Below are positions 33,560-59,456 of a stretch of DNA of 64,000 bases, in pieces (positions within the stretch are counted from its first letter, which is position 1; every line of letters begins with the position of its first letter). The position numbers and the translations under genes were made by a program. The stretch spans positions 32,001 to 96,000 of the IMG/VR virus record IMGVR_UViG_3300021138_000007; one strand, given 5' to 3'. The notes below the pieces were generated by a model, which saw only the letters and a program-made list of their open reading frames with translations, ran no database searches and was not told the DNA's origin. This DNA is from a virus.

Positions 33560-33594
33560 ATTTAATATATTGAATATGACAAAACAAAAATCCT

Positions 33595-35209: not shown

Positions 35210-35217
35210 AATCTCAC

Positions 35218-36218: not shown

Positions 36219-36226
36219 GTGATCCT

Positions 36227-38369: not shown

Positions 38370-38379
38370 AATACCTCAT

Positions 38380-39024
38380 CTATATTGCTTCTTCTAAAGA
38401 TAAAGAAAAAACAATTCCTGCAAAAAAGTTGTTTAAAGCATTTTCACGCTTAATGTTTTCAATACTATTATTGTGCAAAGTATCATAGATTTGTATATAT
38501 TTTATTGAAAATTCGTGAAGCAAAGTAATTGCGGCTGTTACAACACAATCACAATGATTGCTTGCAGGCACGTAAATTCGGTTACATCTGGGACATTCAA
38601 TTTTCCTAATATCTAAAACAGGACTCGCCCGTAGAGTCGAATAATCTCTTGGAAAATGCTCATTCGTTTTTAAATGAACAAAAAAGCATTGATGCATTGT
38701 GCTATATGAAGCATATTTAACTTTTCCTACAATTAAATCATTATAAAAAATATCAACTAACTCAGGCTTGTATTTCAATAAATTTTCTTGACTAACAACA
38801 TATCCATCATGACTAATATAATTAGAGATAAATAAAGGAATTTTTTTACTATTGTCATTGAGAGATATAATACTTCCTGTTTTGTATGTAAAATCAGCAT
38901 TCATAAAAAGGATTATAGGCTGTAAATATAGAAATTTTCCAATGATGGTACAAATTAAATTAGACAGGGATATGTTAGTTGAAGAATTGTATAGCCTACG
39001 TGCTTTGATTCCAACAGAAATCAA
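38380..39024 (-). CDS. Hypothetical protein with CxxC (start probably internal)
   Basis: CPRC...HCDC; 5' part overlaps an opposite-strand gene. Confidence 0.4.
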   Translation of the reverse strand: MISVGIKARRLYNSSTNISLSNLICTIIGKFLYLQPIILFMNADFTYKTGSIISLNDNSKKIPLFISNYISHDGYVVSQENLLKYKPELVDIFYNDLIVGKVKYASYSTMHQCFFVHLKTNEHFPRDYSTLRASPVLDIRKIECPRCNRIYVPASNHCDCVVTAAITLLHEFSIKYIQIYDTLHNNSIENIKRENALNNFFAGIVFSLSLEEAI

Positions 39025-39130
39025 TGAAGCTAATACAAAACTTATGGATATTATTCTTTTGGTTCAAAATGCTCCAGTGGATACAAATCAAGCATCATAC
39101 CCTAGAATAAACGGCAGAAGAAGAGGCTAA
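38942..39130 (+). CDS. Small hypothetical protein
   Basis: MMVQIKLDRD..., starting 7 nt after AGGA-N18-GAAA. Confidence 0.5.
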   Translation: MMVQIKLDRDMLVEELYSLRALIPTEINEANTKLMDIILLVQNAPVDTNQASYPRINGRRRG

Positions 39131-39133
39131 AAA

Positions 39134-39523
39134 TTGAACGAATTTCAAACAGCTATAAAACTTGCTCATCATTTAGATGCAACGGGGAATTACCATCTCG
39201 CTGATGAAATTGATCACATTTTGATAAAATATGCGCAAAATGCCATTTTACCTGGCAATAATCAAACATATGATCAACAAATTAATCAAATTAACCAAAA
39301 TTTAGTAACAATGGATAGAAACTATAGCAATATGTTTAATTTGTTCAAATTACAACTTAATAGAATTATTCAGCAAATGAATAATACACCAGGAGCGTCT
39401 CCGTCAACAGCAACTTCGGCAGGAGCACCTTCGGCAACTGAATCACAACCAGTAAATAATCCTACAAACAATCCAAATATTAATGTTCCTTCTGGTGGAA
39501 CTGTTAATATCAATACTTTATAG
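39134..39523 (+). CDS. Putative head-associated protein with IKLAxxLDxxGxYxxADEID N-terminal module
   Basis: Module ends in KYAQ; a similar module occurs in 48809..49309. Confidence 0.55.
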   Translation: MNEFQTAIKLAHHLDATGNYHLADEIDHILIKYAQNAILPGNNQTYDQQINQINQNLVTMDRNYSNMFNLFKLQLNRIIQQMNNTPGASPSTATSAGAPSATESQPVNNPTNNPNINVPSGGTVNINTL

Positions 39524-39822
39524 TGAATGGTATGAAATTAAAAGAACTCAAATCTATACAGGAAAAAGCTTTAATCAATGAAGCAACTATCGCAGATGTT
39601 ATTATGATCGTAAGCGAACATTTTGTTTCGTCTAGTGAACATAATAAAAAAACTAATGCGTTGCTTGAAAAGATTTTAGATAATCAAAACAAATTGTTAT
39701 CTAAAATTGAAACATTGGAAACATATGTACTTTCGCCAATTTATCAAGGGATTTTCGAAGAAGAGGAAGAAGAAATTCCTTCCTCTTCTTCGGAGGAAAA
39801 TGAAGAGGAAGAGGAAGATTAA
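39523..39822 (+). CDS. Hypothetical protein with acidic tail
   Basis: ORF track. Confidence 0.5.
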   Translation: MNGMKLKELKSIQEKALINEATIADVIMIVSEHFVSSSEHNKKTNALLEKILDNQNKLLSKIETLETYVLSPIYQGIFEEEEEEIPSSSSEENEEEEED

Positions 39823-40631
39823 AATTTCTTTCTAACTCTGATAGGAGGAAGCAAAATTTCTGAACTCTTTTGGGTAAACTTTTGCTTGTTTGCAGTGGCC
39901 TGTAAATCAGCTAAATTTAAATCAATACGAAACTTCTTGTCTGTAGCCAAACAACAATAAATGCCGTCACCGACAGGATATACATCAGAAGTATTAGTGA
40001 AAGGAGAAAGTATTTCCCACTCTCCATTATCTAAAGCCACAATGGTTCCAAAAGGCAATGTACTTCGAGTATTAGTCTCTACAACAGCATCGCCAGATAA
40101 TGTATCATAATCTTTACTGATCATTCCTAAACGACGTTTTCCTTCAATACTTAAATCTTCGTTTTCAATATCGTCTAACATATCAATATCGTCCATAATC
40201 AAAGTGCGCTCTTGAATGTTACCATTTTTATCTTTAGTTAAAACTTTAGCAACATTATCCCCATTGTCTGAAACGCTATTGGCATTTAATTCCTTAAATA
40301 AAGCATCTGTAATTGCGTTATGTTGTTTAATCTGCTCGTCATTTAAAACAGGCTCAACAGTTTTCACATGATTTAATTCTCCATAAAGAACTAATGCTCT
40401 CATTGCCATAGAAGCAAAATCTGCCTGTGCGTCTTCTTTAACAGCATTAATGCAAGCCTGAGCAATTCTTGCCGCTGCCAATAAACCGCCAGTAGGCATA
40501 ACTCCCACTTGATCCATAAAATGCTTCTTTAAAGCATTTAAAACAATTTGCTCTTCATTACTTAATCCAGAAGTTTGAATCTTTGATTCAAATAATGCCT
40601 GTCCACGTTGCTGATTGTAATCTAATGTCAT
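39819..40631 (-). CDS. Hypothetical protein
   Basis: 270-aa ORF with GGAG SD. Confidence 0.65.
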   Translation of the reverse strand: MTLDYNQQRGQALFESKIQTSGLSNEEQIVLNALKKHFMDQVGVMPTGGLLAAARIAQACINAVKEDAQADFASMAMRALVLYGELNHVKTVEPVLNDEQIKQHNAITDALFKELNANSVSDNGDNVAKVLTKDKNGNIQERTLIMDDIDMLDDIENEDLSIEGKRRLGMISKDYDTLSGDAVVETNTRSTLPFGTIVALDNGEWEILSPFTNTSDVYPVGDGIYCCLATDKKFRIDLNLADLQATANKQKFTQKSSEILLPPIRVRKKF

Positions 40632-40652
40632 TTTTGTTTTTCTCCATTAATA

Positions 40653-41285
40653 ATGTTAATTTATACAAAATTTGCCATTATTAATGGAGAGGTGATGTGT
40701 ATGAGTAGGAATCCAGCGTATAATGCGTTTTTAAATAAAGTAAATGAAACAATTGTCAATGAGGCTGAAAATAACTTTTTTGGAAAAGTTCCGAAACAAA
40801 ACGTAATTCAAGATGGAACAGCTATTACAAAAGCTATGCTTATTACTTATGAAGCTAAAGACACAGATTACGCCAGTAATGGTAAACCTATGGGTAATTT
40901 GAGACTATCAGAAAAAATGGGAATTGCACCCTGGAAAGCTGTATTACTTAGAATGAGTGATAAATTAAGCAGAATCGAAAGCTTTATTCAAAGAGGCGAA
41001 TATTCTGTTGAAGATGAAAAAGTCACAGATACACTTATTGACTTTGCAAACTATGCATTGCTAGGAAGATGTTTATTTGATGAATATTTTGAAGATCAAA
41101 AAACAAACAATGTTTTAGATGCTCAAACAAATTGGCTCAGTTTGTCATATCTGTGTGTGAAATCAAAACTACTTTATGAATATAACAAAAATGAAGAATA
41201 TGAAACAATAAAGTGGAGCCAAAATAATTGGGAACAAGTTAAATATTACTTTGAACTTCTTTGTGAATTCGCAAGAAGCGTATAA
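40653..41285 (+). CDS. DUF1599-like nucleotide-modification-associated (MazG-like) protein
   Basis: KDTDYA...VLLRMSDKLSRI...EKVTDTLIDFANYALL; real start probably near 40695-40701. Confidence 0.75.
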   Translation: MLIYTKFAIINGEVMCMSRNPAYNAFLNKVNETIVNEAENNFFGKVPKQNVIQDGTAITKAMLITYEAKDTDYASNGKPMGNLRLSEKMGIAPWKAVLLRMSDKLSRIESFIQRGEYSVEDEKVTDTLIDFANYALLGRCLFDEYFEDQKTNNVLDAQTNWLSLSYLCVKSKLLYEYNKNEEYETIKWSQNNWEQVKYYFELLCEFARSV

Positions 41286-41310
41286 CGGAATCATTAATAC
41301 TATCCTTTGT

Positions 41311-41336
41311 AGGAATTTAAGCTATTATGGAAGAAT
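41311..41336 (+). promoter_or_regulatory. SigH-type (putative late) promoter
   Basis: AGGA-N18-GAAT upstream of 41375. Confidence 0.6.
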
Positions 41337-41374
41337 ATTCTTTTATAATAGCTTAAGCTTAAATAGAGGATAAT

Positions 41375-42238
41375 ATGCCCATTTTACCACCAGAACTTAT
41401 ATCGACTTGGTATATTATGTATGATACCAGTACAGGTAATCCTACATATAGACTATTAGAAAATTGGTCTGAATCACAATCACAATCTGTTACGCCTAAA
41501 CCGCTCTTGCAAGGTGATATAGGTACGCATGTAATGGATATTGGAGGGATTAAATATACAACAACAATTAATTCTCCTGTTGTGATTGTGGAAACTAATG
41601 GAGGAACAGATATTACATCTGTTTTTGATTTATTATTAACTAGCTTTAATGTTATTTTTGATCCAACATTACAAAGCGATCCAAATCTTACTTATATTCT
41701 TAAATCAGCCGCCATAAACATAAGACAAGAAGGCGTTACTGTGGACTTAACATATTGGTCTAGCCAACCAGGAGCATTTCAACCAGCTTACATTAGCCCA
41801 TTTGATTTTATCGCAAGAACAGCTAGATTTTATGATACTACCTTCGTGGTTAATGATTCAGACGTCACTGGTAATTATCAAATTATAACTGGCTCAATCA
41901 ATATTGATGTGAATTTATCTGAAAATTATTTTATTAATACAGGTTCACAATTGCCTTATTTTGGTATACAGGGTTACACTGTTAAAGGTAATGTGGATAT
42001 ATTGGCGACACCTATCACCAATACCTCTAATAATATCTTTGATAGGTTTTTTGTTACAGCACAAAGTCCTGGTATATTAAATACAATTAATGCCAATACA
42101 TCATTAAAAATTGGCAACGTACAATTAAATTTAGGGCAAACTAGCGTAGTCAATAATTCAAGTATTAAAATGTCACCTAATCAACCAACTACAGTGAAAT
42201 TAGAATTCAACTCTTATGTTAGATATACATCTGTATAA
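41375..42238 (+). CDS. Putative virion structural protein (tail-tube-like)
   Basis: Beta-rich, T/N/S-rich, low charge; preceded by SD and putative late promoter. Confidence 0.4.
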   Translation: MPILPPELISTWYIMYDTSTGNPTYRLLENWSESQSQSVTPKPLLQGDIGTHVMDIGGIKYTTTINSPVVIVETNGGTDITSVFDLLLTSFNVIFDPTLQSDPNLTYILKSAAINIRQEGVTVDLTYWSSQPGAFQPAYISPFDFIARTARFYDTTFVVNDSDVTGNYQIITGSINIDVNLSENYFINTGSQLPYFGIQGYTVKGNVDILATPITNTSNNIFDRFFVTAQSPGILNTINANTSLKIGNVQLNLGQTSVVNNSSIKMSPNQPTTVKLEFNSYVRYTSV

Positions 42239-42836
42239 TTGTTGTACTATGCCTAAAAAGACAAAGAAAACTAAACCAAAAGCTCCCACTGTTAAAAAAG
42301 CTTTTGTGTTTCACACAGTGACACCAGAAGAAAACTTACCAGATGGATCATTGCTTCTGAAATTTACCATTCCTGGAAGACCAGCAACTAAAAAAACACA
42401 CCAAAGAATTGTTAGACTTGGTGGTTTTAATCGCATACTTCCCTCTATACAATATGAAAAATATGAAAAAGAATGCAAAAAATACTGTGAAGATGTTTGG
42501 AAGAAAATAGGTAAACCACCTATGGATTTTGGAGTTTCAGTATGTATAAAAATTGCTGTTGATACTTGGGTGCTGGGAGATGTAACTGGATATCAACAAG
42601 CAATAGGAGATATTCTTGAAAAACATGGAGTCATAGCAGATGATATGTGGATTCATTGGACAGATGAAGATACTCATACGATGTTGGAACCAGATAAAGT
42701 CAATCCAAGAGTTGAAATTACTATCAGAAGATTTAGACATCCTAAAGAAAATTATAGAATTCAACAAGAAAATGACGAAAATAGAAAAATAGCTAAAAGA
42801 TTAGCCAAAAATAAGGATCAAGATGGCACAACTTAA
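42216..42836 (+). CDS. rusA: RusA-like Holliday junction resolvase
   Basis: FTIPGRPATKK...DVTGYQQAIGDIL...IADD...NPRVEITI. Confidence 0.75.
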   Translation: MLDIHLYNCCTMPKKTKKTKPKAPTVKKAFVFHTVTPEENLPDGSLLLKFTIPGRPATKKTHQRIVRLGGFNRILPSIQYEKYEKECKKYCEDVWKKIGKPPMDFGVSVCIKIAVDTWVLGDVTGYQQAIGDILEKHGVIADDMWIHWTDEDTHTMLEPDKVNPRVEITIRRFRHPKENYRIQQENDENRKIAKRLAKNKDQDGTT

Positions 42837-43152
42837 AACAATTAATATTATTGATATCAAAGGCTTGAACGATGATGAAATTATAGAAGTCGCTCAAAAT
42901 TTAGAAGATGATGATCCAAGTACACTTTACTTTTTAGTATCATTTGAACTTCAATTTTCTCTAGAAGAACAAGATAATAAAACATTGCTGACGCTTGAAA
43001 TCAAAGACGCAGAACAAAGCGATTTTGAAAATTTCGTCTACAATTTGGCGTATGTACCTGATTATTATGATGATTTGATCATTAAAGTCATTAATGCGGA
43101 TCAATATAATACCGATAAACTCGAAGGATTTACAATCAAAGAAGAAAAATGA
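42823..43152 (+). CDS. Acidic hypothetical protein
   Basis: ORF track; SD AAGGA. Confidence 0.55.
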   Translation: MAQLKTINIIDIKGLNDDEIIEVAQNLEDDDPSTLYFLVSFELQFSLEEQDNKTLLTLEIKDAEQSDFENFVYNLAYVPDYYDDLIIKVINADQYNTDKLEGFTIKEEK

Positions 43153-43159
43153 TAGATGT

Positions 43160-43429
43160 ATGGTAGAAATTTTTACATTCGAGCAATTTTCAGATGATAA
43201 AATCAAATTAATGTGGAATACCCTTTATAATCTCTACATTATTAAAGACAAACCTGTGGGGTGGAAATTAACTCCTCCATTCCTTGATTCTCTTTGTGTG
43301 TTGCTTAATGTTCCAACAGAACCTACATATAATTTAATTTTGAAAGAAAAATTTTTGGGTGTAGGAATTGATATAACAACTAAACAACCTTGCTTGATTG
43401 GAGAAAATGGTTTTTTTGTTCTATATTAA
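43160..43429 (+). CDS. Hypothetical protein
   Basis: Internal ATG (MVEIF) of tracked ORF 43094..43429, just after the upstream stop. Confidence 0.45.
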   Translation: MVEIFTFEQFSDDKIKLMWNTLYNLYIIKDKPVGWKLTPPFLDSLCVLLNVPTEPTYNLILKEKFLGVGIDITTKQPCLIGENGFFVLY

Positions 43430-43433
43430 TATT

Positions 43434-43490
43434 TAAAAATTCCTTCATAATCCCAAGCTTTTTAGGCTTGGGATTATGAAGGAATTTTTA
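43434..43490. terminator. Long perfect hairpin, probable bidirectional terminator
   Basis: 25-bp perfect inverted repeat with 7-nt loop between convergent genes. Confidence 0.7.
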
Positions 43491-43501
43491 TTTCAACAAT
43501 A

Positions 43502-44062
43502 CTAAACGTTTTCACTACTTAATTTCTTTGTAATAGGATTATATATAATAATGTGCTTGTTCTTTTTACGAGCATACTCTACACAATTATAAGTTCCACC
43601 CTTGGGATTTCCATCAAATACAGCTAACAAAGTATCTGATTGATCCACCATATAATGGTTTCGCGCATGTAACCAACCAACAACACTGCGATCATGATTG
43701 TAAACAGCAGCATCCTCGGCATCTAAAAGCTCATCTAAACTATATACACGCTTTTCACTCACAACATAAATAGTATCAGAATTTTGAGCAATATTTACCC
43801 AATTATTTACATGCCTGTCTGTCCATGATTTCTTTGTTTGACCAATAAAAGGCACAGCGGCAACCAAATTAATGTCATCCCGAAACTGCTTTTCTTCTAC
43901 TAAAATTTTACCAGCAATCTGATCTACGCCAATCGCCATACCAGTGTAAAAAGTTCGATAATCTTTATTAAGTGAAGAACGTATCAAACGACGCAATGCT
44001 TCCTCAACCAATAAATCTTTCCCATAAAGATTGCGATGACCTGTAAATGCGAGAGTTTTCAT
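43502..44062 (-). CDS. SLOG-family protein (YspA/DUF1273-like)
   Basis: AFTGHR, GMAIGVD, VPF, RNHYMVD...AVFDG..GGT. Confidence 0.88.
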   Translation of the reverse strand: MKTLAFTGHRNLYGKDLLVEEALRRLIRSSLNKDYRTFYTGMAIGVDQIAGKILVEEKQFRDDINLVAAVPFIGQTKKSWTDRHVNNWVNIAQNSDTIYVVSEKRVYSLDELLDAEDAAVYNHDRSVVGWLHARNHYMVDQSDTLLAVFDGNPKGGTYNCVEYARKKNKHIIIYNPITKKLSSENV

Positions 44063-44216
44063 AAAAACTTCTACGCTCTTTATTCTTCTAAAATTGTTAT
44101 TTTCAAATACATTTTTAGAAAAAACTGCCTATAATTAAATGTTCATGAAAAAATTGTATAAACATTTATATACGAAACCCTTTCGTGAATAAATTGAAAT
44201 GAGGTATATACCAAAA

Positions 44217-44570
44217 ATGATTCCACAAGATATTCTCAACGACATGGATTCTGATACTCTTCCAGAAACTACAGTGACTGCGCAGCCTGTAATTAGCGAT
44301 GAAGATTATCAGAGACTTGCTGTTCTCCGTAATACAATTATCGCTCTTAAAGCCGATAAATCAGATATCGCTGATGCTATCGAAGCCCGTAAACTTGCGC
44401 TACAGGAAGCCGAAGATGCATTGCTGTCTGTGAAAACACAGATTGAAGAAAATGCTAAAAAGCTTCAGGAAACGCTCGATGAAGTCATCGGGCCACTTGG
44501 TCTTGAAGGACAATTCCAAATTGCAGATGACTCCCCGCACTACGTAACTCCTATGTCTGCTCAACAGTAA
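44217..44570 (+). CDS. Small acidic coiled-coil protein
   Basis: GAGG SD before MIPQD; terminator hairpin near 44583-44624. Confidence 0.6.
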   Translation: MIPQDILNDMDSDTLPETTVTAQPVISDEDYQRLAVLRNTIIALKADKSDIADAIEARKLALQEAEDALLSVKTQIEENAKKLQETLDEVIGPLGLEGQFQIADDSPHYVTPMSAQQ

Positions 44571-44641
44571 GAAAATTCTTACAAATTAAAATAGCATCAT
44601 AGAGATATGATGCTATTTTAATTTAAGGTATACTAAAAATT

Positions 44642-45253
44642 ATGAACTTCGATTTATCATTATTTATTAGAGAAAGTAATTTAATTGATCCACAACCTGA
44701 TCAAAACGGTGGAGTCATTCCTGGCGCATTGCCAGGTGATCTACTTTATGATAATCAGAAAAATGCGTGGGATTATATAGAATCAATTAAAAATGATAAA
44801 CAATGGACAAAAGATGTACCACTGAATATACATCGCCTACTTACAAAAGATGTGCCATTTTTTGAATATAATAACTTTTCAGGAAAATATCGCACTTATA
44901 ATGTAACAGTAGGAGGTCACGCATGCCCTGCTTTTTATACCGTTCCAGGATTAATGGAAGATATATTAATACCGAAAATTAATCAACTCTTTAAAGGAGT
45001 GGAAATAGGAAAAATTGATAAAGATGTCGCCGCATGGTGGGTACATAACTGTTTTGAATGCATTCACCCATTCGTAGATGGAAATGGAAGAACAGGAAGA
45101 TTAATGCTTAATGCTTTTCTTTTAGCCAATCAAGGCGAACCCGAAATCGTGTACTTTAATAAAAGATTCGAGTACTATAATAAAATACAAACATTTAGAA
45201 ATGAAAGATTTGGAGATATTCTTAATGAATACTATGAAAAATTTGTATCCTAA
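44642..45253 (+). CDS. Fic-domain protein
   Basis: Canonical HPFVDGNGRTGR. Confidence 0.95.
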   Translation: MNFDLSLFIRESNLIDPQPDQNGGVIPGALPGDLLYDNQKNAWDYIESIKNDKQWTKDVPLNIHRLLTKDVPFFEYNNFSGKYRTYNVTVGGHACPAFYTVPGLMEDILIPKINQLFKGVEIGKIDKDVAAWWVHNCFECIHPFVDGNGRTGRLMLNAFLLANQGEPEIVYFNKRFEYYNKIQTFRNERFGDILNEYYEKFVS

Positions 45254-45270
45254 AGAACGATAATAAATAT

Positions 45271-45957
45271 ATGAAAACTTATACTATTAGCCCCAGTGAC
45301 TTAACATTCCTTTGGAAATCAAAAAGATGCTTTTATCTTAAATATGCACTTAATATCCAAAGACCAAGAATGCCCTTTCCACAAATATTTAATGAAATTG
45401 ATGCATTAATGAAAGCAGAATTTAAAGATAAAAATCTTAATGACTTACATCCAAGTCTTCCAAAAGCAAAAGTATTAGATTTAAGTGAATGGGTGGAGAG
45501 TGTACCTTTTGCTGTTCCAGAATATGATATGCAAATTGTTATTAGAGGCAAAGTTGATACTGTTATTCAATTTGAAGATAATACATATGGCATTGTTGAT
45601 AATAAAACTGCAAAAGTAGATAAACTTGAAGACTATAAATTAGCCATGAATGCATATGCATTTGCAACAGAACATTCAGCGGAAAAAGAAAAATATGGTA
45701 AAAAAGATTTATCTATATCGCCAATTAGTAAATTGGGTTTGATTGTATATGAACCAAATCTTTTCACACTAGAACAAGAAGGCAATCTAAAAGGATCAAT
45801 TCATTGGGTGGAAATAGAAAAAAATACAGATGCATTTCTTAAATTTTTAGGAAAAAGAGTTGCACCACTTCTTGCACAAAAAGAAGTACCCGCACCAGAA
45901 GAAAATGATGAATGGTATAAATATGTAGAAAACTTTTACGTATCAACAGAGGAATAA
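45271..45957 (+). CDS. PD-(D/E)XK nuclease superfamily protein
   Basis: ISPSDL, GKVD...IVDNKT...AYAF. Confidence 0.8.
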   Translation: MKTYTISPSDLTFLWKSKRCFYLKYALNIQRPRMPFPQIFNEIDALMKAEFKDKNLNDLHPSLPKAKVLDLSEWVESVPFAVPEYDMQIVIRGKVDTVIQFEDNTYGIVDNKTAKVDKLEDYKLAMNAYAFATEHSAEKEKYGKKDLSISPISKLGLIVYEPNLFTLEQEGNLKGSIHWVEIEKNTDAFLKFLGKRVAPLLAQKEVPAPEENDEWYKYVENFYVSTEE

Positions 45958-45959
45958 AT

Positions 45960-46235
45960 ATGAAAATTATGCAATTCCAATTGTTTAAAGAATTAACAAA
46001 AAATTGGTATGAATATCCCAAAAATGTTAGAAGAAAACAACTGCTATATTTATTAAAACCTAAAACATATTTTGATGTTCTGCGCTTAACAATAACAAGA
46101 AAAGCAAAATATCAACTATTTGATCCTTTTTTATGCTATGATATAATTAAAACAGGAATGTATGGACAAACATATAGCGCAGACATACATGTTGCACCAA
46201 TGATACCGTGTATTAAAAATAATGATGATAAATAA
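45960..46235 (+). CDS. Hypothetical protein
   Basis: ORF track; SD GAGGA. Confidence 0.45.
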   Translation: MKIMQFQLFKELTKNWYEYPKNVRRKQLLYLLKPKTYFDVLRLTITRKAKYQLFDPFLCYDIIKTGMYGQTYSADIHVAPMIPCIKNNDDK

Positions 46236-46830
46236 AGATTTAATTGAAGTTAATTTGAAATATGATATCTACGATTACAAAAATGCTTTAAACATATTGC
46301 AAAAAAATTATGCCAAAGAGTATAATGAAATAATCGAATGTTTAAAATTGATCGTAATATCGAAAGATGATATTGTTGAGAATGGAGGTAATCAATCTAA
46401 TATTGCAAAAAATATTAAATCAATATTTAAAAATAAATATTGGAAAGATGAATGTCAAATATCTGCAAAAATTAGCGATCATGATATATACACTTCACAT
46501 CATATAGATTTGTTTAAAAATAATATTGCTATAGAAGTGGAATGGAATAATAAAGATACTTTTTTCGACAGAGATATTCTAAACAATAACAAACTCTATA
46601 ACAAAGAGAAAATTTCACTGGCTGTAATTATTACAAGGAGCGATGATTTACAAGAAGTTTTTAATATACTAAATAAAGGAACTTCGTATGGAAGTTCCAC
46701 TACACATATAGGTAAAATTAAAAACAAATTACTAGGAACAGAATGCCCAACAATTGTATTTGGCATAAAGCCAGAATTGATTTCTGAACAGCAATTTGAA
46801 AAACAAAAATCTCTCTTCGATTATTTTTAA
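46222..46830 (+). CDS. BglII/BstYI-family restriction endonuclease-like protein, no adjacent methyltransferase
   Basis: GGN.S.IA, HHIDLFKNNIAIEVEWNNKDTFFDRD, VIITRSDDLQ, YGSSTTH. Confidence 0.8.
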   Translation: MMINKDLIEVNLKYDIYDYKNALNILQKNYAKEYNEIIECLKLIVISKDDIVENGGNQSNIAKNIKSIFKNKYWKDECQISAKISDHDIYTSHHIDLFKNNIAIEVEWNNKDTFFDRDILNNNKLYNKEKISLAVIITRSDDLQEVFNILNKGTSYGSSTTHIGKIKNKLLGTECPTIVFGIKPELISEQQFEKQKSLFDYF

Positions 46831-46846
46831 TAATAAAAGAATAACT

Positions 46847-47449
46847 ATGAAAAAACAAGAACTAGATCAAATAATTAAAAGAAGAGGAATTCTATCAGAA
46901 GGACAAATTGAAGAACAATTTCCTAGAAGAAGATTCTCTCCCTCTATATCAAGAGATGTGTACTATGGAGCAAATGTTCCAGTGCAAGTCCTGTCAAGAT
47001 GGGTGATGGGATTAACTACGCATGATTCACCGTATATCGTAATCTCTATCACCGATCCTGGACAAAATCAATCACCAGACGAACAAGATCATGCGAAAAT
47101 TCCTCAATCTCCAAATCTTAAAGCTATTCTCCCAGTATCATTCTATGATACGAATATAGATTATGAAAATGAAGAAAAAACTTATCCATGTATCAATGAT
47201 CAACAAGCTGCAAGAATTGCTAAATTCTTGATGCAACATATAGTAAATAATAAACAAACTCCTATTGTGGTTTGTCATTGTGAAGCTGGTATTTCAAGAA
47301 GTTCTGGACTCGCGGCGGCGATAGTTAAATTCTTTGATGATGATAATGATGGGATGTGGATTTCTAATCATTTTTATCCCAATATGACGGTATTTATTAA
47401 AGTGTTTAATGCTCTTCAAAATGAATACATTAATTCGAAAAAGAAATAA
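46847..47449 (+). CDS. Protein tyrosine/dual-specificity phosphatase-like protein
   Basis: ISITDP, HCEAGISRS (CX5R), PN. Confidence 0.85.
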   Translation: MKKQELDQIIKRRGILSEGQIEEQFPRRRFSPSISRDVYYGANVPVQVLSRWVMGLTTHDSPYIVISITDPGQNQSPDEQDHAKIPQSPNLKAILPVSFYDTNIDYENEEKTYPCINDQQAARIAKFLMQHIVNNKQTPIVVCHCEAGISRSSGLAAAIVKFFDDDNDGMWISNHFYPNMTVFIKVFNALQNEYINSKKK

Positions 47450-47483
47450 ATTCTCATAAGGTTAAATTGTATAATTTAATCTT

Positions 47484-48773
47484 ATGAGAATAGGTGTGAT
47501 TGGAACAGGATATGTCGGACTTGTACATGCGGCTGTAATGGCTGAAATTGGACATGAAGTTCTTTGCGCTGATATTGATTTTGATAAAATAAATCAGCTT
47601 AGAAAAGGCGAATGCCCTATCTATGAACCAGGACTTCATGAACTTCTTGTTGCACATACAAAAAATGATAGGATATTCTATACTAGTGATATTCTACAAT
47701 GTGCTAAATATGCAGATATTATCTTTATATGTGTTGGAACTCCCCCAAATAAAGACGGATCACCAAATCTTTCCTTTGTGCAAGATGTAGCACAAACAAT
47801 AGCTAAAGCAATTGATAAATATAAAATCATTGTTAATAAATCTACTGTTCCAGTGGGTACTGCTAAATTAGTCTCTAATATCATAAAACAACATCAAATT
47901 ACTCCAGCGCCATTTGATGTTGTAAGTAATCCAGAATTCCTTCGAGAAGGTAACGCCGTCAAAGACGCCTTCAATGGAGATAGAATCGTTATAGGAAGCA
48001 ATTCATGGAAAGCATCAGATGAAATGATGCAACTCTATGCTCAACTTAATACACGAATACTTATTACTGATACTGAAAGCGCCGAAATGATCAAATATGC
48101 CGCTAATGCATTTCTTGCACTTAAAATAAGCTTTATTAACTCTGTGGCAGATATATGCGAACAAACTGGAGCGAATGTAGAAGAAGTAGCAAGAGGTATT
48201 GGAAGCGATTCTAGAATTGGATCACAATTTCTTAAAGCAGGACTTGGATATGGAGGATCATGTTTTGGTAAAGATGTAGACGCATTTATTCATCTGGCAG
48301 ATCAATATGATATCGATTTTAATATCCTTAAAGCAACTAAATTAGTAAATCAAAATCGAACTGCTAAATTTATTGAAAGAATTAGAGAACAACTTTCTTC
48401 ATTAAATGATAGAAATATTGCAGTACTAGGATTGTCTTTTAAACCAAATACTGATGATATGAGAGATGCTAAATCTATTCCTTTAATTAAACAATTAATT
48501 CAAGAAGGAGCATTTGTAAAAGCATACGATCCTGTTGCGATTCCACAAGCCAGAAAACTAATCCCAAATATTACATACGCTAAAGATGCATATGATGCAT
48601 GTGAAACAGCAGACGCTGTGATTATATGTACTGAATGGGATGAATTTAAACAACTTGAATGGGAATATATAGCTAATAATATGCGTGACCCAATTATGTT
48701 TGATGGAAGGAATATGTTTGAAAAAGAAGAAATAGAAAAATTAGGGTGGAGCTATTTTAGTATAGGAAGATAA
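47484..48773 (+). CDS. ugd: UDP-glucose 6-dehydrogenase
   Basis: GTGYVG, CVGTP, KSTVP, NPEFLREG, GYGGSCF, FKPNTDDMR, DGRN. Confidence 0.97.
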   Translation: MRIGVIGTGYVGLVHAAVMAEIGHEVLCADIDFDKINQLRKGECPIYEPGLHELLVAHTKNDRIFYTSDILQCAKYADIIFICVGTPPNKDGSPNLSFVQDVAQTIAKAIDKYKIIVNKSTVPVGTAKLVSNIIKQHQITPAPFDVVSNPEFLREGNAVKDAFNGDRIVIGSNSWKASDEMMQLYAQLNTRILITDTESAEMIKYAANAFLALKISFINSVADICEQTGANVEEVARGIGSDSRIGSQFLKAGLGYGGSCFGKDVDAFIHLADQYDIDFNILKATKLVNQNRTAKFIERIREQLSSLNDRNIAVLGLSFKPNTDDMRDAKSIPLIKQLIQEGAFVKAYDPVAIPQARKLIPNITYAKDAYDACETADAVIICTEWDEFKQLEWEYIANNMRDPIMFDGRNMFEKEEIEKLGWSYFSIGR

Positions 48774-48789
48774 AGCTCCAATAAAGAAT
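48764..48789 (+). promoter_or_regulatory. SigH-type (putative late) promoter
   Basis: AGGA-N18-GAAT, then SD and ATG 48809. Confidence 0.6.
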
Positions 48790-48808
48790 ATAAATACAGG
48801 AGCTTAAA

Positions 48809-49309
48809 ATGAGTCAACAAACAACAGTAAAAATAGCAGAAGTCCTTGGGCAAATGAATGGAGTAATTAACTCTATGGAAGAACAAGGATTATTCGAAGA
48901 AGCAAATGCTTTGAATAAAGTATTTCATAAAATTGCTTGCGATAATTGTCAATGCGGAACTGAAGAATCCACAAATATGACACAACAATTTAGTAATGAA
49001 ATGTCTAATCAAGACGAACCAGATTTTGAAGTCGAAATGGCACATAATCAACTTAGCACAGCGAAAAGAGCAATTCAACAATTACAAGAAACACTTGGTG
49101 TTCATGAAAAAAATCTTCCTGCCTGGGTGCAGTCTAAACTTACAACTGCTGTTGATTATTTAGATACTATTAGCGATTATATGAAAAGCGATAAAGATGG
49201 CGTAGAAATGGAAGATAATGAAGCCGTTCCTATGAAAGCTAAATCATTCAATATGACTGTAGATTCACCTAAAACATCTGCCCCTGCATTCAAGATCACA
49301 GTTGAATAA
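48809..49309 (+). CDS. Putative head-associated protein
   Basis: GLFEEANAL...KIA module and MAHNQL...LPAWVQSKLT.A.DYL phage domain. Confidence 0.55.
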   Translation: MSQQTTVKIAEVLGQMNGVINSMEEQGLFEEANALNKVFHKIACDNCQCGTEESTNMTQQFSNEMSNQDEPDFEVEMAHNQLSTAKRAIQQLQETLGVHEKNLPAWVQSKLTTAVDYLDTISDYMKSDKDGVEMEDNEAVPMKAKSFNMTVDSPKTSAPAFKITVE

Positions 49310-49334
49310 CTTTTAAGAAGAAATAGGAAATTTC

Positions 49335-49652
49335 CTATTTCTTCTTAAAAAATCCCTTCTTACTCTCTAATTCTAAAATCTTAGCCTCTAATTGATCATT
49401 CTTGGCAAGTAATTTTGCAACTTTATCCTTTAATTCAATCACTTCCTCAGGATCATCACTTGCGTCATCACTAATAGTCCAAATATTGCTATGATTATTA
49501 GGGCATTGAAAATTCTTTCCATCAGTCCTGCGGCGACGATAAAAATCTTTTGTAACACCAAATTTAATGCAACATGTTGCACATGTTATTGGAATTAAAT
49601 CATCATCGTCAAATTGATTTAAATATTCTTGAGTTGCTTTGCTTAATCTCAT
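49335..49652 (-). CDS. Zinc-binding hypothetical protein
   Basis: CATC...CPNNH plus coiled coil. Confidence 0.6.
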   Translation of the reverse strand: MRLSKATQEYLNQFDDDDLIPITCATCCIKFGVTKDFYRRRRTDGKNFQCPNNHSNIWTISDDASDDPEEVIELKDKVAKLLAKNDQLEAKILELESKKGFFKKK

Positions 49653-49703
49653 ATGTTTTTCTCTTTAAAGGTATGTTTAATTGTAAAATGTAATTATTGT
49701 ATT

Positions 49704-50150
49704 ATGTGGTATAGGAATAAGCATAAATATAGAATTTCTCATGATTTAAATGAAGTTGATAGAATTGCGGACATTGTAAGTAAAATGAATCCATATACTC
49801 CTCAACAACACTTTGATCTTTTGACAAAACCATTGCCGCAAATATCTGAATCTGCTTCCGTAGAAGAAAGACTTAAACATATTGCTGATAATAACTTTAT
49901 CAGGATATATAATAGTATTCATCCTCAAATTTATATTTTCCCAAGTGAATCAGTAGGCAAATGGAGATATTTTTTATATGATCCCAAACATCTTAAAAGA
50001 ATAATGAATGAAGATTATTATGAAACACTTACCACGCCTTTTAATCTAGATTATCCATTAGAAGAAGTTTATAGCTGGTGTCATAAACAATATCCAACAG
50101 CATTAATTGATCATTTTGATTCGGAAGAAGAAGCTATTCAAGACTCATAA
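49704..50150 (+). CDS. MWY-leader protein
   Basis: MWYRNKHKYRIS, 9 nt behind AGGT-N18-TAAT. Confidence 0.55.
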   Translation: MWYRNKHKYRISHDLNEVDRIADIVSKMNPYTPQQHFDLLTKPLPQISESASVEERLKHIADNNFIRIYNSIHPQIYIFPSESVGKWRYFLYDPKHLKRIMNEDYYETLTTPFNLDYPLEEVYSWCHKQYPTALIDHFDSEEEAIQDS

Positions 50151-50544
50151 GTTTTTTGCTTAATTCAATATTCAATTTATTAGGAAATTTTAACTTTAAA
50201 TTTTGTAAAAAACTTCGTTTACTAGGCTGTCGAAAATAAATATAAATATTATATTTGTCTTTGTCTTCTTGAGGAATCTTTAAACCTATAACTGTAGAGT
50301 CTGAATATACTAATTCACAATCTTTACCAAATTGTTTATAAATATGATCATCTACAATAATGCTAAAGTCTCCATAATAAGATGGCCCACTCAATATTCG
50401 TGTTTGAGGATGATAGGGAACAAATTTAATATCTACATAAACTACATTCCCAACACCATACCCGCCATGATATATCCACAAATATTTATCATGATTAACA
50501 TTCATTAATGTTAAAATTTTGTTCAAAGCTTTATCTATTTTCAT
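50134..50544 (-). CDS. Hypothetical protein
   Basis: ORF track; coupled to the upstream gene. Confidence 0.5.
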   Translation of the reverse strand: MKIDKALNKILTLMNVNHDKYLWIYHGGYGVGNVVYVDIKFVPYHPQTRILSGPSYYGDFSIIVDDHIYKQFGKDCELVYSDSTVIGLKIPQEDKDKYNIYIYFRQPSKRSFLQNLKLKFPNKLNIELSKKLMSLE

Positions 50545-51053
50545 TAGCTTCCTCGATAAAGAATGCCCTGAATGTATTCATATTTACCTTTGCATTCACG
50601 AGCGTCTGCAAGAGCATCATGCTTATTTCCTGTAGTTGGCAAAATGAACTTTTCAATACCTTCTTGCTTACGCCATTGCTGAATGTCACGCACAAACATA
50701 GGCCAAGTCTTCGGTAAATCAAGCATTTTGCCATATAATTGACATAACACCACCCAATCATATGAAGCATAATCTGCCCAGAATTCAGGATTTTTCCCGA
50801 CAAATTCAATAATGTCTTTCGCTATCTGTTTTCTGGTCTTCCAAACAGGAGAGTCCTCTTGCGGTAAATGACAAATGACATTGTCTTGTAGCCATTTATC
50901 TTTAAGAATACGATCCCAATCTGCGTCAATAACACAAGCGTAATATTCTCTGTTATCTTCACTAACAATCGCAATTGAAATTAATTCAATTGTTTTACCA
51001 TCTTCTAAAAATTCTGTATCAAAAAAGTATTTAATCTTCTTGCTCCTCTTCAT
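50544..51053 (-). CDS. DEDDh 3'-5' exonuclease (Rv2179c/RNase AS-like)
   Basis: FFDTEF, LISIAIV, YASYDWV, HDALADAR. Confidence 0.9.
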   Translation of the reverse strand: MKRSKKIKYFFDTEFLEDGKTIELISIAIVSEDNREYYACVIDADWDRILKDKWLQDNVICHLPQEDSPVWKTRKQIAKDIIEFVGKNPEFWADYASYDWVVLCQLYGKMLDLPKTWPMFVRDIQQWRKQEGIEKFILPTTGNKHDALADARECKGKYEYIQGILYRGS

Positions 51054-51396
51054 CTGTGTCTTTTGTATTTGCTAATAAATCCTCATAAGTTTTAATTGCA
51101 TTCTCAATAGTGGCAATTTGATTCTTAATCTGGTCAATATTAAAATCACCTTCATCAGCCTTCACGTTATCATAACGCACTACTGATTCTACTAAAGTTA
51201 ATTCTAACTTGGAGAAATATAACATTTCATTTAAAAATTGTAACTTTAAATTAATGCCACCGCGATTTGAATCATACATGGCTTTCACCCTGCCATATTC
51301 AACACCAGCATAAATAACTAAATTAATAGCCTGTTTAGATGTTAACTGAACAGGATATTTGACTTCTTCTGCATATAATTCTTCAATGTTTTTCAT
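51031..51396 (-). CDS. Hypothetical protein
   Basis: ORF track. Confidence 0.55.
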   Translation of the reverse strand: MKNIEELYAEEVKYPVQLTSKQAINLVIYAGVEYGRVKAMYDSNRGGINLKLQFLNEMLYFSKLELTLVESVVRYDNVKADEGDFNIDQIKNQIATIENAIKTYEDLLANTKDTDEEEQED

Positions 51397-51554
51397 TTTT
51401 TACCCTTAATATATACTACGTGAATTCATCAATAATGTTAGCATCCCTAATGCCTCGATATGTCCCATACATCAAAGCAATTATAGTGATCATTATATAT
51501 GTGAAACTAAATACTAATTCAAGCGCCATTGCTTTATTTTTTATTGAAATTCAA

Positions 51555-52202
51555 CTACCATTCAGAATGAATTTCAATAAAACTCCAAATATTTATTAAC
51601 TTTTTATACATCATGATTTCCAGTGTATTACAATTAGCACTGGAAATTTCCACAATTACAAAATGACCTTCTTCTGTAACTTTACGACCAACAGATGAAA
51701 CTCTGACATGCAATGGATTAATGTTTAAAGTTATATTCTCTTTCTTAGCTTCAGAAATAACATCCTCTAAAGCTTTTTCGGCATCTTCGCGCAAATATTG
51801 AAATAATTGTTCATCATTTAATTTCACGCCATCACGATAATGAATTCCTTTAGCAGATTCTTCTAATTCGAATTGCTTCATATCAAGCTTTCGCATTTCA
51901 TTAATAGAAATACCTTCATACCAATCGCTCCCGTATAAATCTTGAAGATATTTATCATAATCAGCAATGCTTTTTGGAGAATCTACTAAATCAGAATTAG
52001 GAGAAGCATCTAATTCTATTTCATAACTACCCGCTTCATAATATCCATCGATGTCATTATATCTTCCATGTTCATTTAAATACCATTTTCTTACCGTTCT
52101 TGTAGGACGTGTAGCTACAGCGTCGGCTTTTTCTTTACTGGAATAAACGCCGAGAATTGTAGTGGATTCTATATCATTAATATAAGCAATATGTAATTTC
52201 AT
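51555..52202 (-). CDS. Hypothetical protein
   Basis: ILGVYSSKEKA motif common in small phage proteins. Confidence 0.55.
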   Translation of the reverse strand: MKLHIAYINDIESTTILGVYSSKEKADAVATRPTRTVRKWYLNEHGRYNDIDGYYEAGSYEIELDASPNSDLVDSPKSIADYDKYLQDLYGSDWYEGISINEMRKLDMKQFELEESAKGIHYRDGVKLNDEQLFQYLREDAEKALEDVISEAKKENITLNINPLHVRVSSVGRKVTEEGHFVIVEISSANCNTLEIMMYKKLINIWSFIEIHSEW

Positions 52203-52744
52203 TTTATATCATAATCGATCAAACGATCTATATTTATTCTTATTATAGCAAATCTTTCTTCAAAATCTCCTACGATAATATCACCAAAATCGTTATCAAA
52301 AAACTTCCAACCATTTGAAGTTTTTTCAAATGATAAACTGTTAATTTTATATTCATTTAAAATGTGCTTAATATGCTCTAAAAATGAATTAACGTAGTCT
52401 TGTGATATATTTAGTATCACTGCCCCAAATTCAGTAAATTCCCTATAATTTCCGTGCTTTGGACGTGTGTTTTTAAGCCAACACTGTGTTACATAAAAGT
52501 ATCTATGTTCTTCAGCACTAACATAGTCTAAATAATCCCTGATTGTATCTTTCCCAGTCTGTCGTAAATATACATTGCTTTTTTCAATTTGATAAGAATG
52601 TAATAAATCTACTTTAGGATAAGTTTCAAATGATTGTAGACATATTTCTTGAAAACCAACTAAATCTAAACCACTAATCAAAGTATTAATTAATGATCTT
52701 TTGTGTTTTTCTCTTTTGGTGTCAAAACTCATTGTCTTCCTCAA
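52199..52744 (-). CDS. Degenerate class II aminoacyl-tRNA synthetase (HisRS/HisZ-like) core fragment
   Basis: GFQEI (motif 1), YLRQTG, YFYVTQCW..TRPKHGNYREFTEFGAVI (motif 2-like). Confidence 0.55.
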   Translation of the reverse strand: MRKTMSFDTKREKHKRSLINTLISGLDLVGFQEICLQSFETYPKVDLLHSYQIEKSNVYLRQTGKDTIRDYLDYVSAEEHRYFYVTQCWLKNTRPKHGNYREFTEFGAVILNISQDYVNSFLEHIKHILNEYKINSLSFEKTSNGWKFFDNDFGDIIVGDFEERFAIIRINIDRLIDYDIK

Positions 52745-53090
52745 TAATTACTTCAGGCGATTCAACATTAAATTCAGCTCTCCAACGATTGAATGCCTCT
52801 AATACATCTGGAGCTAAATAAACTACTTCTATAGAACGACGCAATTCTGTAATGCCATCACGAGCTATTCGACGCAACTGAACGACTCCAACAAATCCAG
52901 ATGTCTTCAACTCTTTTAGATATTCTACTTCAATATTATCAGCCTCATCTTTAACATCATATAAAGCTAATAATTCCCATCCAGATTCATCTTTAAAATT
53001 TGGTTCACGCTTATCTAAACGTGTGTCTTCAAATTCAATACGTAATTCTTTTTTACGCATTTGTATCATTTTCATTTGTTTCTCTGTCAT
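52722..53090 (-). CDS. Hypothetical protein
   Basis: ORF track. Confidence 0.55.
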   Translation of the reverse strand: MTEKQMKMIQMRKKELRIEFEDTRLDKREPNFKDESGWELLALYDVKDEADNIEVEYLKELKTSGFVGVVQLRRIARDGITELRRSIEVVYLAPDVLEAFNRWRAEFNVESPEVIIEEDNEF

Positions 53091-54058
53091 AATGTATATA
53101 CTTCCTTATTGGCATTTTCAAAACAATTTATTTCTACTTGAATTTGATTTAAAGTTCCAACAGTTTTGCTACACATAGATTGTAATATTGATAATACTTG
53201 TTTATTTTGCTGAAGTAATATATCAGTATCATCAATTAAATTATATGCACTTTGAATTTCTTGTATCGAATTTGTCGCGCCGTAAATTACATTGAGTTTT
53301 TGAGCCATAGATTCAATAGGTGCAATTATATCAATGGCTTCTTGTTTTTGTATGAGTAGTTTATTTTGTTGCTCTTTTAATTTCACAATACAATCATTCG
53401 CTGTTTCAATGCGAGATAATGTCAATATAGACATTTCATCTTCTTGCACTTCAACTGAATGTTGCAAACTACTGACAATATCATGAAGTTTATTTATATG
53501 TTTTGAAATTTTATTGTAACTTTCATCAATTGTTTTTATTAAATCATGGCTTTTTTGTATAGGTTCATTTGTTAAATAATCAATAACTTTTTTAATTATA
53601 TTTGCATCATATGCATTAAAATCTAAAATATTATTTTCTAATTTAAATTCCTTTTCATATTTATGCTTTTTAATACTGTAATATATTGAACTTATGAATC
53701 CATACCTATGATAAAAAATAGGAGGAAAATATTTCGAATCTTGGTATGCATTTAGTACCATACCAATGAACATACCCGTTAATACAAAGCCAATAATCAA
53801 ATTAACAACAAAATGACCTAGATAATCTGGAAAAGTCACGGGATTATCAACAATATGATAATGATGCGCAATATACCAAGAAATTCCAGTCATCCAAATT
53901 ATAATATCTCCAAATACACCGATTTGAAAAGCTTCATTTGCAACAACTATTTTATCGTGCATTGAATTTTCTTGTTTTTTTGATAAAATTTCGCATGCAA
54001 TAGCCTCTTTATATAAAGTCTCAATATCTATATCAGTATTCATTTCTAAAGTATTCAT
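53087..54058 (-). CDS. Membrane protein with C-terminal coiled coil (paralog of 54055..55077)
   Basis: Two hydrophobic segments; shared YL..PIQ...LI..IDES, LT..RI..A and AI.P...MA..LN. Confidence 0.65.
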   Translation of the reverse strand: MNTLEMNTDIDIETLYKEAIACEILSKKQENSMHDKIVVANEAFQIGVFGDIIIWMTGISWYIAHHYHIVDNPVTFPDYLGHFVVNLIIGFVLTGMFIGMVLNAYQDSKYFPPIFYHRYGFISSIYYSIKKHKYEKEFKLENNILDFNAYDANIIKKVIDYLTNEPIQKSHDLIKTIDESYNKISKHINKLHDIVSSLQHSVEVQEDEMSILTLSRIETANDCIVKLKEQQNKLLIQKQEAIDIIAPIESMAQKLNVIYGATNSIQEIQSAYNLIDDTDILLQQNKQVLSILQSMCSKTVGTLNQIQVEINCFENANKEVYTL

Positions 54059-55077
54059 GATATTTTTTCAATCTCCAATTGAGCGCCAACATAACAGTCT
54101 AAATCCCTGCGGATATTATTAATACGAGACATAGTATGATTACATATTGCGTTAATGCTATCAATCGCGGCACAATTTTGAGCAATAAGAACTTTATTGT
54201 CATCGACAACATTCATCATTATATTAATCTCATTTATCATATTTGTAACAGTGCTAAGAGCATTTAGACGATCCGCCATCTTCTTTAATGGCTCAATAGC
54301 ATTATTAACTTCATTTTTCTGATTTTTAAATATAACCAACTGATCTTTAAGCTTTTGAGAACACAATTGAGCCATATCAATCCGATTTTGAGTTAATTCA
54401 CTAATTGCATCTTTATTGTTATCAAAAGTTAAGCGAACTTTCATATTTTTAACTAATTGATCAATCTTGGATATTTGATTGTCTGTTGATCGAATTGATT
54501 CATCAATTGATGAAATTAAATTATCAGCTTCTTGGATGGGGAATTTTAATAAATATTTAGATACAGTATCAATAACTTCAGGATCATATATATTTATTTC
54601 CTGAGTCGTATTAGGTATTTCGATATTTTGCTTTTTGATAATTAAAGATACAATTAAAGACATAATACCATGCACTCGATAATCATACGACAAATGACCA
54701 GGAGTATATCTACCTAAAGCAATATTGTCTAAAACAAGAATGGAAAATAAAGTTGTAAATATAGCACCTTCTCCAGCCAGACAATATGCCCACCAACCGA
54801 ATAATCCAAAGTAAAAATTAACTGCGGCAAAAATTGTAATAGCATTATAAGAAAATAGATCAAGACTATTAAATATACCAAAAATAGCTTTCCATATCTT
54901 TTGCGAATTGTCTAGTTTATTTTTCCATTTATTAATTTGTTTGATTCTACTATCATATGTATCAATTTCCTCATTTTTAAACTGGGACTCTTCTGACTTT
55001 GCTTTTTTATATAAAGCAATAATATCAGATTCAACAAGATAGTTGGTAAAATCAATTTGCTCTAATGCTAAACTCAT
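54055..55077 (-). CDS. Membrane protein with C-terminal coiled coil (paralog of 53087..54058)
   Basis: Same architecture and motifs; ATGA-coupled to its paralog. Confidence 0.65.
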   Translation of the reverse strand: MSLALEQIDFTNYLVESDIIALYKKAKSEESQFKNEEIDTYDSRIKQINKWKNKLDNSQKIWKAIFGIFNSLDLFSYNAITIFAAVNFYFGLFGWWAYCLAGEGAIFTTLFSILVLDNIALGRYTPGHLSYDYRVHGIMSLIVSLIIKKQNIEIPNTTQEINIYDPEVIDTVSKYLLKFPIQEADNLISSIDESIRSTDNQISKIDQLVKNMKVRLTFDNNKDAISELTQNRIDMAQLCSQKLKDQLVIFKNQKNEVNNAIEPLKKMADRLNALSTVTNMINEINIMMNVVDDNKVLIAQNCAAIDSINAICNHTMSRINNIRRDLDCYVGAQLEIEKIS

Positions 55078-55589: not shown

Positions 55590-55647
55590 TTATATACTGT
55601 TAGTATAGAAAAAGAACTTTGTTAAATAATGAGAGAAAAATCTCTCA

Positions 55648-56478: not shown

Positions 56479-56556
56479 AATATCTTTATACGATTTTGCG
56501 ATAACTTTATCTTGTCATAAAAAGGATTCAATAACAGTAAGTTGAAAATAATTAAT

Positions 56557-57267: not shown

Positions 57268-57304
57268 TTATTAATGTATCTGAAACTTTTAAAAGGAAAA
57301 GAAA

Positions 57305-58097: not shown

Positions 58098-58125
58098 AAC
58101 AGTACCCTATTTCTAGGGTACTGTT
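58098..58125 (-). terminator. Hairpin downstream of 58150..58635
   Basis: AACAGTACCCTA-N4-TAGGGTACTGTT; second hairpin at about 58129-58146. Confidence 0.55.
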
Positions 58126-58149
58126 CTTAGTACCTTGCGGGGTACTGTA

Positions 58150-59439: not shown

Positions 59440-59456
59440 TCGAAACAGCGACTCCC

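Follow-up and report, generated by a model that had tools for sequence, protein, structure and literature searches.

A solitary BglII/BstYI-family restriction endonuclease gene in a jumbo phage whose available sequence is free of RGATCY

In phages, restriction-site avoidance takes the form of a palindrome-specific depletion that is brought about through synonymous codons and varies between related phages. Among the type II restriction endonucleases (REases), BstYI and BglII are accompanied by protecting N4-cytosine methylases, and Dam methylation does not block them. A phage-encoded enzyme of the Pfam family PF09195, R.Nph3I of Nitratiruptor phage NrS-3, cuts all four RGATCY sequences in vitro, is blocked by 6mA and is encoded alongside its cognate adenine methylase, M.Nph3I (PMC10734518). 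The genome of the temperate NrS-3 keeps 23 RGATCY sites, and its restriction-modification (R-M) system was interpreted as protection of the lysogen (PMC10734518). In A. baumannii A118, the endonuclease H0N27_10830 and the methyltransferase H0N27_10820 are associated with m6A methylation of RGATCY, and Dam methylation is protective (PMC10287943). A solitary REase is represented by PacI of Pseudomonas alcaligenes, which is cited as having no methylase and as being tolerated because the genome lacks its site (PMC3488263).

Here we analyse a stretch of viral DNA of 64,000 nt (the window), corresponding to positions 32001-96000 of the IMG/VR virus record IMGVR_UViG_3300021138_000007 (112,111 bp; hereafter G000). 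CheckV estimates the completeness of G000 at ~31%, so that about two thirds of its genome lie outside the available sequence. The DNA polymerase places G000 in a clade of freshwater jumbo phages represented by contigs of up to 379 kb. A 12-kb megablast query found no match among cultured phages, and tblastn with the DNA polymerase recovered just distant DnaE-type matches (<=36% identity). The closest relative is IMGVR_UViG_3300032116_000001 (378,848 bp, CheckV 100% complete; hereafter G043), with 62% polymerase identity; the two are sisters, with SH-aLRT 95, on a quick polymerase tree of which the ingroup topology alone was used, its three distant outgroups being mistranslated, with stops. Pfam matches in the stretch comprising G000 1-34000 and window 933-27951 include IF3 (both domains), UDP-galactopyranose mutase, an M24 peptidase, two LAGLIDADG_3 domains and a DUF559/MTES_1575 Vsr-like nuclease domain. 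The window also encodes two sigma-70-like factors with regions 2 and 4 (2634-3230 and 5656-6306, both on the minus strand) and a ribonucleotide reductase large subunit of 1,267 aa (9747-13550, minus strand) whose endonuclease-like segment at residues 477-594 suggests an intein or an inserted homing endonuclease. A tRNA search of the window was negative.

The first-pass annotation had assigned a BglII/BstYI-type endonuclease to one ORF of the window (Table 1), and the family profile bears this out: the ORF matches PF09195 (Endonuc-BglII) with E=7.2e-32 over model positions 1-163 of 163, scoring 110.8 bits against a cut-off of 26. Its 58 homologs, several of which carry the source name "BglII/BstYI family type II restriction endonuclease", were recovered with E values from 1e-41 to 1e-23, all at <=44% identity. 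The catalytic residues D96, E105 and E107 correspond to D84, E93 and Q95 of BglII in a single-sequence alignment and to D119, E128 and Q130 of BstYI in the family-profile match; they make up the D...E-x-(Q/E) motif of the PD-(D/E)XK type and are invariant or nearly so within the subfamily. In addition, K111 aligns with K133 of BstYI, which we take to have a role in recognising the outer base pair. In the subfamily alignment the phage enzyme retains 26 of 26 invariant columns; the EWNNKD core, SYGSSTTH and K152 are preserved. Among the 59 columns conserved at >=90%, 41 are retained and 18 deviate, the poly-Gly loop and the DRDLNNFRLL motif being among the latter; since the median member deviates at 1, the phage enzyme is the most divergent of the subfamily. 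A single homolog, P0018, shares derived features with it, and the two relatives recovered in a search for the P0018 contig (loci L214 and L215) are both of the ordinary kind, with a D12 methylase alongside. In P0008, a family member from A. baumannii that shares ~40% identity with the phage enzyme, K176 takes the position of K152. P0008 is probably the A118 enzyme, and if so, K152 matches the residue that was mutated in the A118 RE* strain (PMC10287943).

The AF2 model of the phage REase (pLDDT 85, pTM 0.84) adopts a BamHI/BglII/BstYI-like fold, and its Foldseek matches at E<=~1e-3 are solely BstYI, BglII, BamHI and OkrAI (TM 0.46-0.61), the cleavage sites of which all fall within RGATCY. Profile match, catalytic motif and predicted fold together show, at the level of sequence, that the ORF encodes an intact BglII/BstYI-family restriction endonuclease. 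We infer that the enzyme is active, the argument for this being conservation, and that it would cut RGATCY or a subset thereof. Of the NGATCN classes, the phage lacks RGATCY and CGATCG alone, and any other GATC-core specificity would thus be suicidal. The earlier annotation had cautioned that the specificity of this protein could not be assumed; that caution can be relaxed to some degree, as the A118 enzyme and R.Nph3I belong to the same Pfam family and cut RGATCY and the structural neighbours cut within it.

The first reading by eye had counted roughly 180 GATC sites in the window with none in the RGATCY context. A program count gives 191, distributed over YGATCY (78), RGATCR (61) and YGATCR (52), with RGATCY at 0. 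The Markov comparison that had been proposed for this word yields the same picture, with ~50, 62 and 40 occurrences expected in the window under models of order 1, 2 and 3, respectively. Across the entire 112,111 bp of G000, which hold 346 GATC sites, the corresponding expectations are 90, 110 and 73, and AGATCT, AGATCC, GGATCT and GGATCC are each observed 0 times; the available record is in this respect free of the site, as a solitary REase calls for. Even an independent-flank model that keeps the depleted flank frequencies predicts 43.8 RGATCY in G000, giving a probability of zero occurrences of ~1e-19. The loss can be followed at the codon level. GAT accounts for 80% of Asp codons in G000 ORFs overall, yet it is never used in the context [..R][Asp][CY.], where all 12 Asp codons are GAC; ATC for Ile was chosen in 0 of 36 cases, and TCY for Ser following AGA or GGA in 0 of 47 cases, in which RGATCY would have resulted. 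Since the GAT, ATC and TCY codons that would create the site are never chosen, the absence of RGATCY is attributable to selection and to neither chance nor mutation bias.

Among the purged words of G000, RGATCY stands first, and it is one of many. Fifty-four palindromic hexamers are expected 5 times or more, and 17 of them are at zero, as against 13 of 3,680 non-palindromic hexamers, most of which contain RGATCY or CCGG. CCGG itself occurs 0 times (50-77 expected), as do TGGCCA (0/25, observed/expected), CTGCAG (0/18), CAGCTG, CCATGG, GRGCYC, CGATCG, AGGCCT, TCGCGA, GCTAGC, GTGCAC, ACGCGT, CACGTG and GCGCGC. CTTAAG is reduced to 7 of 36 expected, and the non-palindromic CTTA/TAAG is strongly depleted as well (764 vs ~1,170 expected). 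Among the matches listed for the 112 kb of G000, no sequence-specific type II REase other than the BglII-like gene can be recognised; further orphan type II REases for the other purged sites were sought, and those matches offered just the DUF559/MTES_1575 Vsr-like and LAGLIDADG domains. Microcystis was considered as a host and rejected: its methylome includes m4C RGATCY together with GAATTC and GATATC (PMC4730716), and both of the latter words are not purged in G000. Past the end of the window, at G000 102322-103212 (plus strand), lies a gene for an ArdC-like anti-restriction protein (ArdcN E=8e-31, zincin metallopeptidase domain E=8e-36), a second anti-restriction investment beside site avoidance.

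The REase gene lies in an insertion relative to G043 (Table 1). The gene order YpsA-like, coiled-coil, Fic, PD-(D/E)XK and UDP-glucose dehydrogenase is common to both phages, the PD-(D/E)XK gene being 39% identical to its syntenic counterpart at G043 64998-64348 and the dehydrogenase gene 55% identical to G043 63859-62579. Between these two genes G043 has ~490 bp of non-homologous DNA, and no remnant of the REase was found either in this slot or in the whole G043 genome. The end of the 91-aa ORF overlaps the REase start by 14 nt; a weak homolog of this ORF is present elsewhere in G043, at 140.5 kb. The possibility that it represents a remnant controller (C) protein was rejected, as it has no HTH domain and is dissimilar to the HTH_3 controller of L215. 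The phosphatase-like ORF, which possibly starts at TTG 46796 and has a homolog at 370 kb in G043, fills the slot directly downstream of the REase in which homologous systems have an MT-A70 methylase. With a GC content of 25%, against 34% for the genome, the REase gene is not a recent arrival from a GC-rich donor. Metagenome contigs of lake and freshwater origin, from three studies (2012, 2016 and 2020), span the junction between the conserved flank and the REase, with no differences and no deletion variants. A scan for promoters and terminators performed no better than shuffles in the case of promoters. A hairpin with a perfect 20-bp stem, terminator-like on both strands, is located at window 43439-43485, between convergent genes ending at 43429 (plus strand) and 43502 (minus strand), at the edge of a block of accessory genes.

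Table 1. Location of the REase gene, its neighbours and the site-free DNA within the window
Feature	Position in the window	Strand	Evidence or remark
RGATCY-free DNA	1..64000		within purge of ~17 palindromic hexamers and CCGG
Fic/DOC family gene	44642..45253	+	PF02661 E=3e-16; syntenic in G043
PD-(D/E)XK nuclease gene, conserved upstream flank	45271..45957	+	PF12705 E=5e-6
Three-gene insertion relative to G043, 1.5 kb	45958..47483		tblastn synteny; GC 28% vs genome 34%
91-aa ORF, no assigned function	45960..46235	+	no Pfam match
Solitary BglII/BstYI-family type IIP restriction endonuclease gene	46222..46830	+	202 aa; PF09195
Weak dual-specificity-phosphatase-like ORF	46847..47449	+	DSPc E=1.4e-4, below Pfam cut-off
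UDP-glucose/GDP-mannose dehydrogenase, conserved downstream flank	47484..48773	+	PF03721, PF00984, PF03720, E 2e-66 to 1e-36

To compare this arrangement with that of related genes, 114 homologous REase loci (34 viral and 80 bacterial) were gathered and the genes adjoining the REase were clustered. An adenine methylase adjoins the REase in 101 of them, of the MT-A70 class in 91 and of the D12 class in 10; the MT-A70 partner, of ~225 aa, is directly downstream on the same strand in 71 of the 91. The phage gene was originally noted to have no flanking methyltransferase, and this stands: its neighbours are the 91-aa ORF and the phosphatase-like ORF, so that the locus lacks the linked methyltransferase of a type II R-M system, and HMMs for both the MT-A70 and the D12 partner types have zero matches in G000 or G043. 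Pfam searches of the 112 kb of G000 found none of PF01555, PF00145, PF02086, PF05063 and PF02384. The genome searches with PF05063 (MT-A70) and PF02923 (BamHI family) gave no match, with the positive controls silent too, and the absence of MT-A70 therefore rests on the custom HMM built from the 91 partner sequences. None of six methylase Pfam families was found in the complete G043. In sum, no methylase was detected in the available 112 kb of G000 (~31% of the genome) or in complete G043. RGATCY is kept in the flanks of all 13 homologous loci without an adjacent MT-A70 or D12 gene, and G000 is the sole locus among 115 that joins the lack of a methylase to the lack of RGATCY sites.

The sister phage bears directly on the origin of the site loss. 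G043 has RGATCY at 0/394 (observed/expected), CCGG at 0/519, CGATCG at 0/57, ACGCGT at 0/33 and GCGCGC at 0/46, and shows the same codon-level signature as G000 (0/116, 0/168 and 0/298); no BglII-family gene was found in it by Pfam, tblastn or a family profile with E values up to 10. Sixteen palindromic hexamers are at zero in G043, including GGGCCC (0/62), GGCGCC (0/60) and CTCGAG (0/38). Site avoidance appears to be the sole basis of protection in G043, and its scale is unusual. TGGCCA, CTGCAG, CAGCTG, CCATGG, AGGCCT and TCGCGA, purged in G000, are at normal density in G043, as would be expected of phages that each follow the restriction systems present in their respective hosts. Other members of the clade have neither the REase gene nor RGATCY avoidance: the PF09195 gene was found in 0 of the 19 searchable relatives, by a search validated on G000, G024 and G026, and RGATCY occurs at the expected density in most of them (for instance, 31 observed vs 30 expected). 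Different words are purged in different clade members; the relative IMGVR_UViG_3300007734_000743 (L046) has no GATC in 23 kb. GATC is likewise absent from 20 kb of an REase-bearing provirus locus, L029.

Two accounts of the missing sites have to be weighed. The phage's own REase might have selected RGATCY out of the genome, as the match between enzyme family and missing site could suggest; of 32 viral loci with the REase, 5 moreover show complete RGATCY loss, compared with 2 of 80 polymerase-selected ones (Fisher p=0.02), a crude association that ignores phylogeny, counts G043 as one of the two controls and is equally explained by a common cause. G043, however, is at 0/394 with neither the gene nor a remnant of it, the REase of G000 sits in an insertion between conserved genes, and, for the ~17 other palindromes and CCGG that are also purged, the matches listed for the 112 kb include no corresponding nuclease gene; we therefore give self-inflicted loss little probability. 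An ancient gain of the REase gene followed by a clean loss in G043 appears improbable. Because the gene-less sister is equally RGATCY-free, the REase profits from the missing sites and is not their cause. The initial proposal, in which avoidance of the site may shield the phage from its own enzyme, survives in so far as an intact REase, no methylase and no sites were found, and fails in its causal part; it had been made on the understanding that relatives without the gene would not avoid RGATCY equally, and G043 does. The alternative raised alongside it, avoidance of a host XhoII/BstYI-like system, has gained ground: avoidance imposed from outside is now the favoured cause, since G043 without the gene lacks the site and RGATCY is one of many purged palindromes. 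Four viral records (G024, G026, G028 and G030), phage or provirus, of 39-46 kb and ~60% GC, carry the REase with an MT-A70 methylase. Their genome-wide RGATCY counts are 2/49, 1/57, 0/43 and 0/45 (observed/expected), and they are purged of other palindromes too; they have no nucleotide similarity in common except for ~4 kb between G024 and G026. REase carriage and RGATCY loss in G043 and these four records fit a common-cause pattern, in which phages living where RGATCY restriction circulates would be selected to lose the site and would also have the chance to acquire the genes.

As to the role of the solitary enzyme, we consider it probable that host restriction purged RGATCY first, thereby enabling the phage to retain a solitary nuclease of the RGATCY type for use against unmethylated host or rival DNA. 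Restriction systems of the host population, one of them RGATCY-specific, would have removed the sites from the lineage that G000 and G043 share; an RGATCY-free genome could then carry an R gene without an M gene at no cost, and G000 would have gained its R gene after the purge, probably out of the set of R-M systems to which the avoidance itself is due. In an infected cell the enzyme, as a homodimer, would cleave RGATCY that is unmethylated, given that N6-methyladenine in GATC blocks characterised members of the family; likely targets are the chromosomes of host strains without protecting methylation and co-infecting phages or plasmids; as RGATCY is absent from it, the phage DNA would be no target. 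Hosts that impose the avoidance, if RGATCY-methylated, have protected DNA, which narrows the possible targets. The genes of G000 for nucleotide metabolism (ribonucleotide reductase, dCMP deaminase and dUTPase) and its exonuclease genes (RecJ-like, SbcC-like and PD-(D/E)XK) are compatible with recycling of host DNA, and do not prove it. What speaks against the preferred history is the divergence of the enzyme (<=44% identity, 18 of 59 conserved positions changed), through which its specificity or activity may have changed. The same long branch and deviations, poly-Gly loop and DRDLNNFRLL included, would fit a passenger or relic that is inactive or has drifted in role or specificity (for instance towards nicking, repair or a homing-like function), the site match being coincidental; such a match would not be rare, because ~31% of the testable palindromic hexamers are absent from G000. 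Yet the ORF is full-length, retains the catalytic D/E/E, the EWNNKD core, SYGSSTTH and K152, has a confidently predicted fold and was identical in sequence across the 2012-2020 samples, and RGATCY is no marginal word among those purged but the foremost. We accordingly regard a relic as unlikely, though still the least improbable of the competing accounts. That the cognate methylase of a separated R-M system is encoded in the remaining two thirds of the genome appears highly improbable: the record is ~31% complete and such systems are known in bacteria (PMC3488263), but with no target sites there is nothing for a methylase to protect, and the complete G043 has none of six methylase families and no homolog of either partner type. 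More tentatively, and short of calling it probable, we extend the preferred history to a general one, in which methylase-free REases would be an offensive tool of large lytic phages and host-imposed avoidance would license the weapon. The R gene would have been taken, without the M gene, from the kind of system that stripped the site, and the REase would shred unmethylated host chromosomes as well as rivals, including clade relatives with normal RGATCY density.

If the REase is active, it would represent a clean natural case in which a virus has separated a restriction enzyme from the methylase and directed it outward, with self and non-self told apart by a missing sequence and not by a chemical mark. 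The pair formed by G000 and G043 orders the events, the purge being earlier and the gene probably later. These predictions are easy to test, since the protein is small, its predicted site is simple and a related phage enzyme already has a published cell-free assay. In annotation, a phage REase that stands alone should not be written off as a broken R-M system; conversely, a phage nuclease and a matching missing site should not be given a causal reading without looking at relatives.

Compared with the systems described to date, the G000 locus shares with R.Nph3I a phage-encoded PF09195 endonuclease, the two being likened by Pfam family, and differs in that NrS-3 has a methylase and sites, neither of which was found in the available sequence of G000, a jumbo phage. 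With A118 it shares a BglII/BstYI-family enzyme, tied in that strain to m6A RGATCY; the A118 system, however, serves bacterial defence and includes a methylase and an HTH regulator, and the G000 REase has neither. BstYI (PDB 1SDO, 1VRR, 2P0J) and BglII (1D2I, 1DFM) are the best structural matches, with Foldseek E values of 7e-8 and 3e-6, although their identity to the phage REase is just 16-21%. The third catalytic position is Glu in the phage REase, like BamHI, and Gln in BstYI and BglII, and the subfamily of the phage enzyme pairs with adenine methylases, unlike BstYI and BglII. PacI provides the parallel of a solitary REase without a methylase in a site-free carrier, albeit on a bacterial chromosome, and PacI has an unrelated fold and a rare site of 8 bp; in G000 the site is a degenerate 6-mer of which ~100 copies are expected, and the carrier is a phage. 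Relative to phage avoidance in general, that of G000 is unusually complete (0 of ~100 expected; in G043, 0 of ~394) and is combined with a nuclease predicted to cut one of the avoided sites. RGATCY-cutting phage PF09195 enzymes with a methylase, solitary REases in site-free bacteria and site avoidance by phages are each already known singly; what is new is their combination in a methylase-free PF09195 member of a jumbo phage, together with a sister genome from which the order of events can be read.
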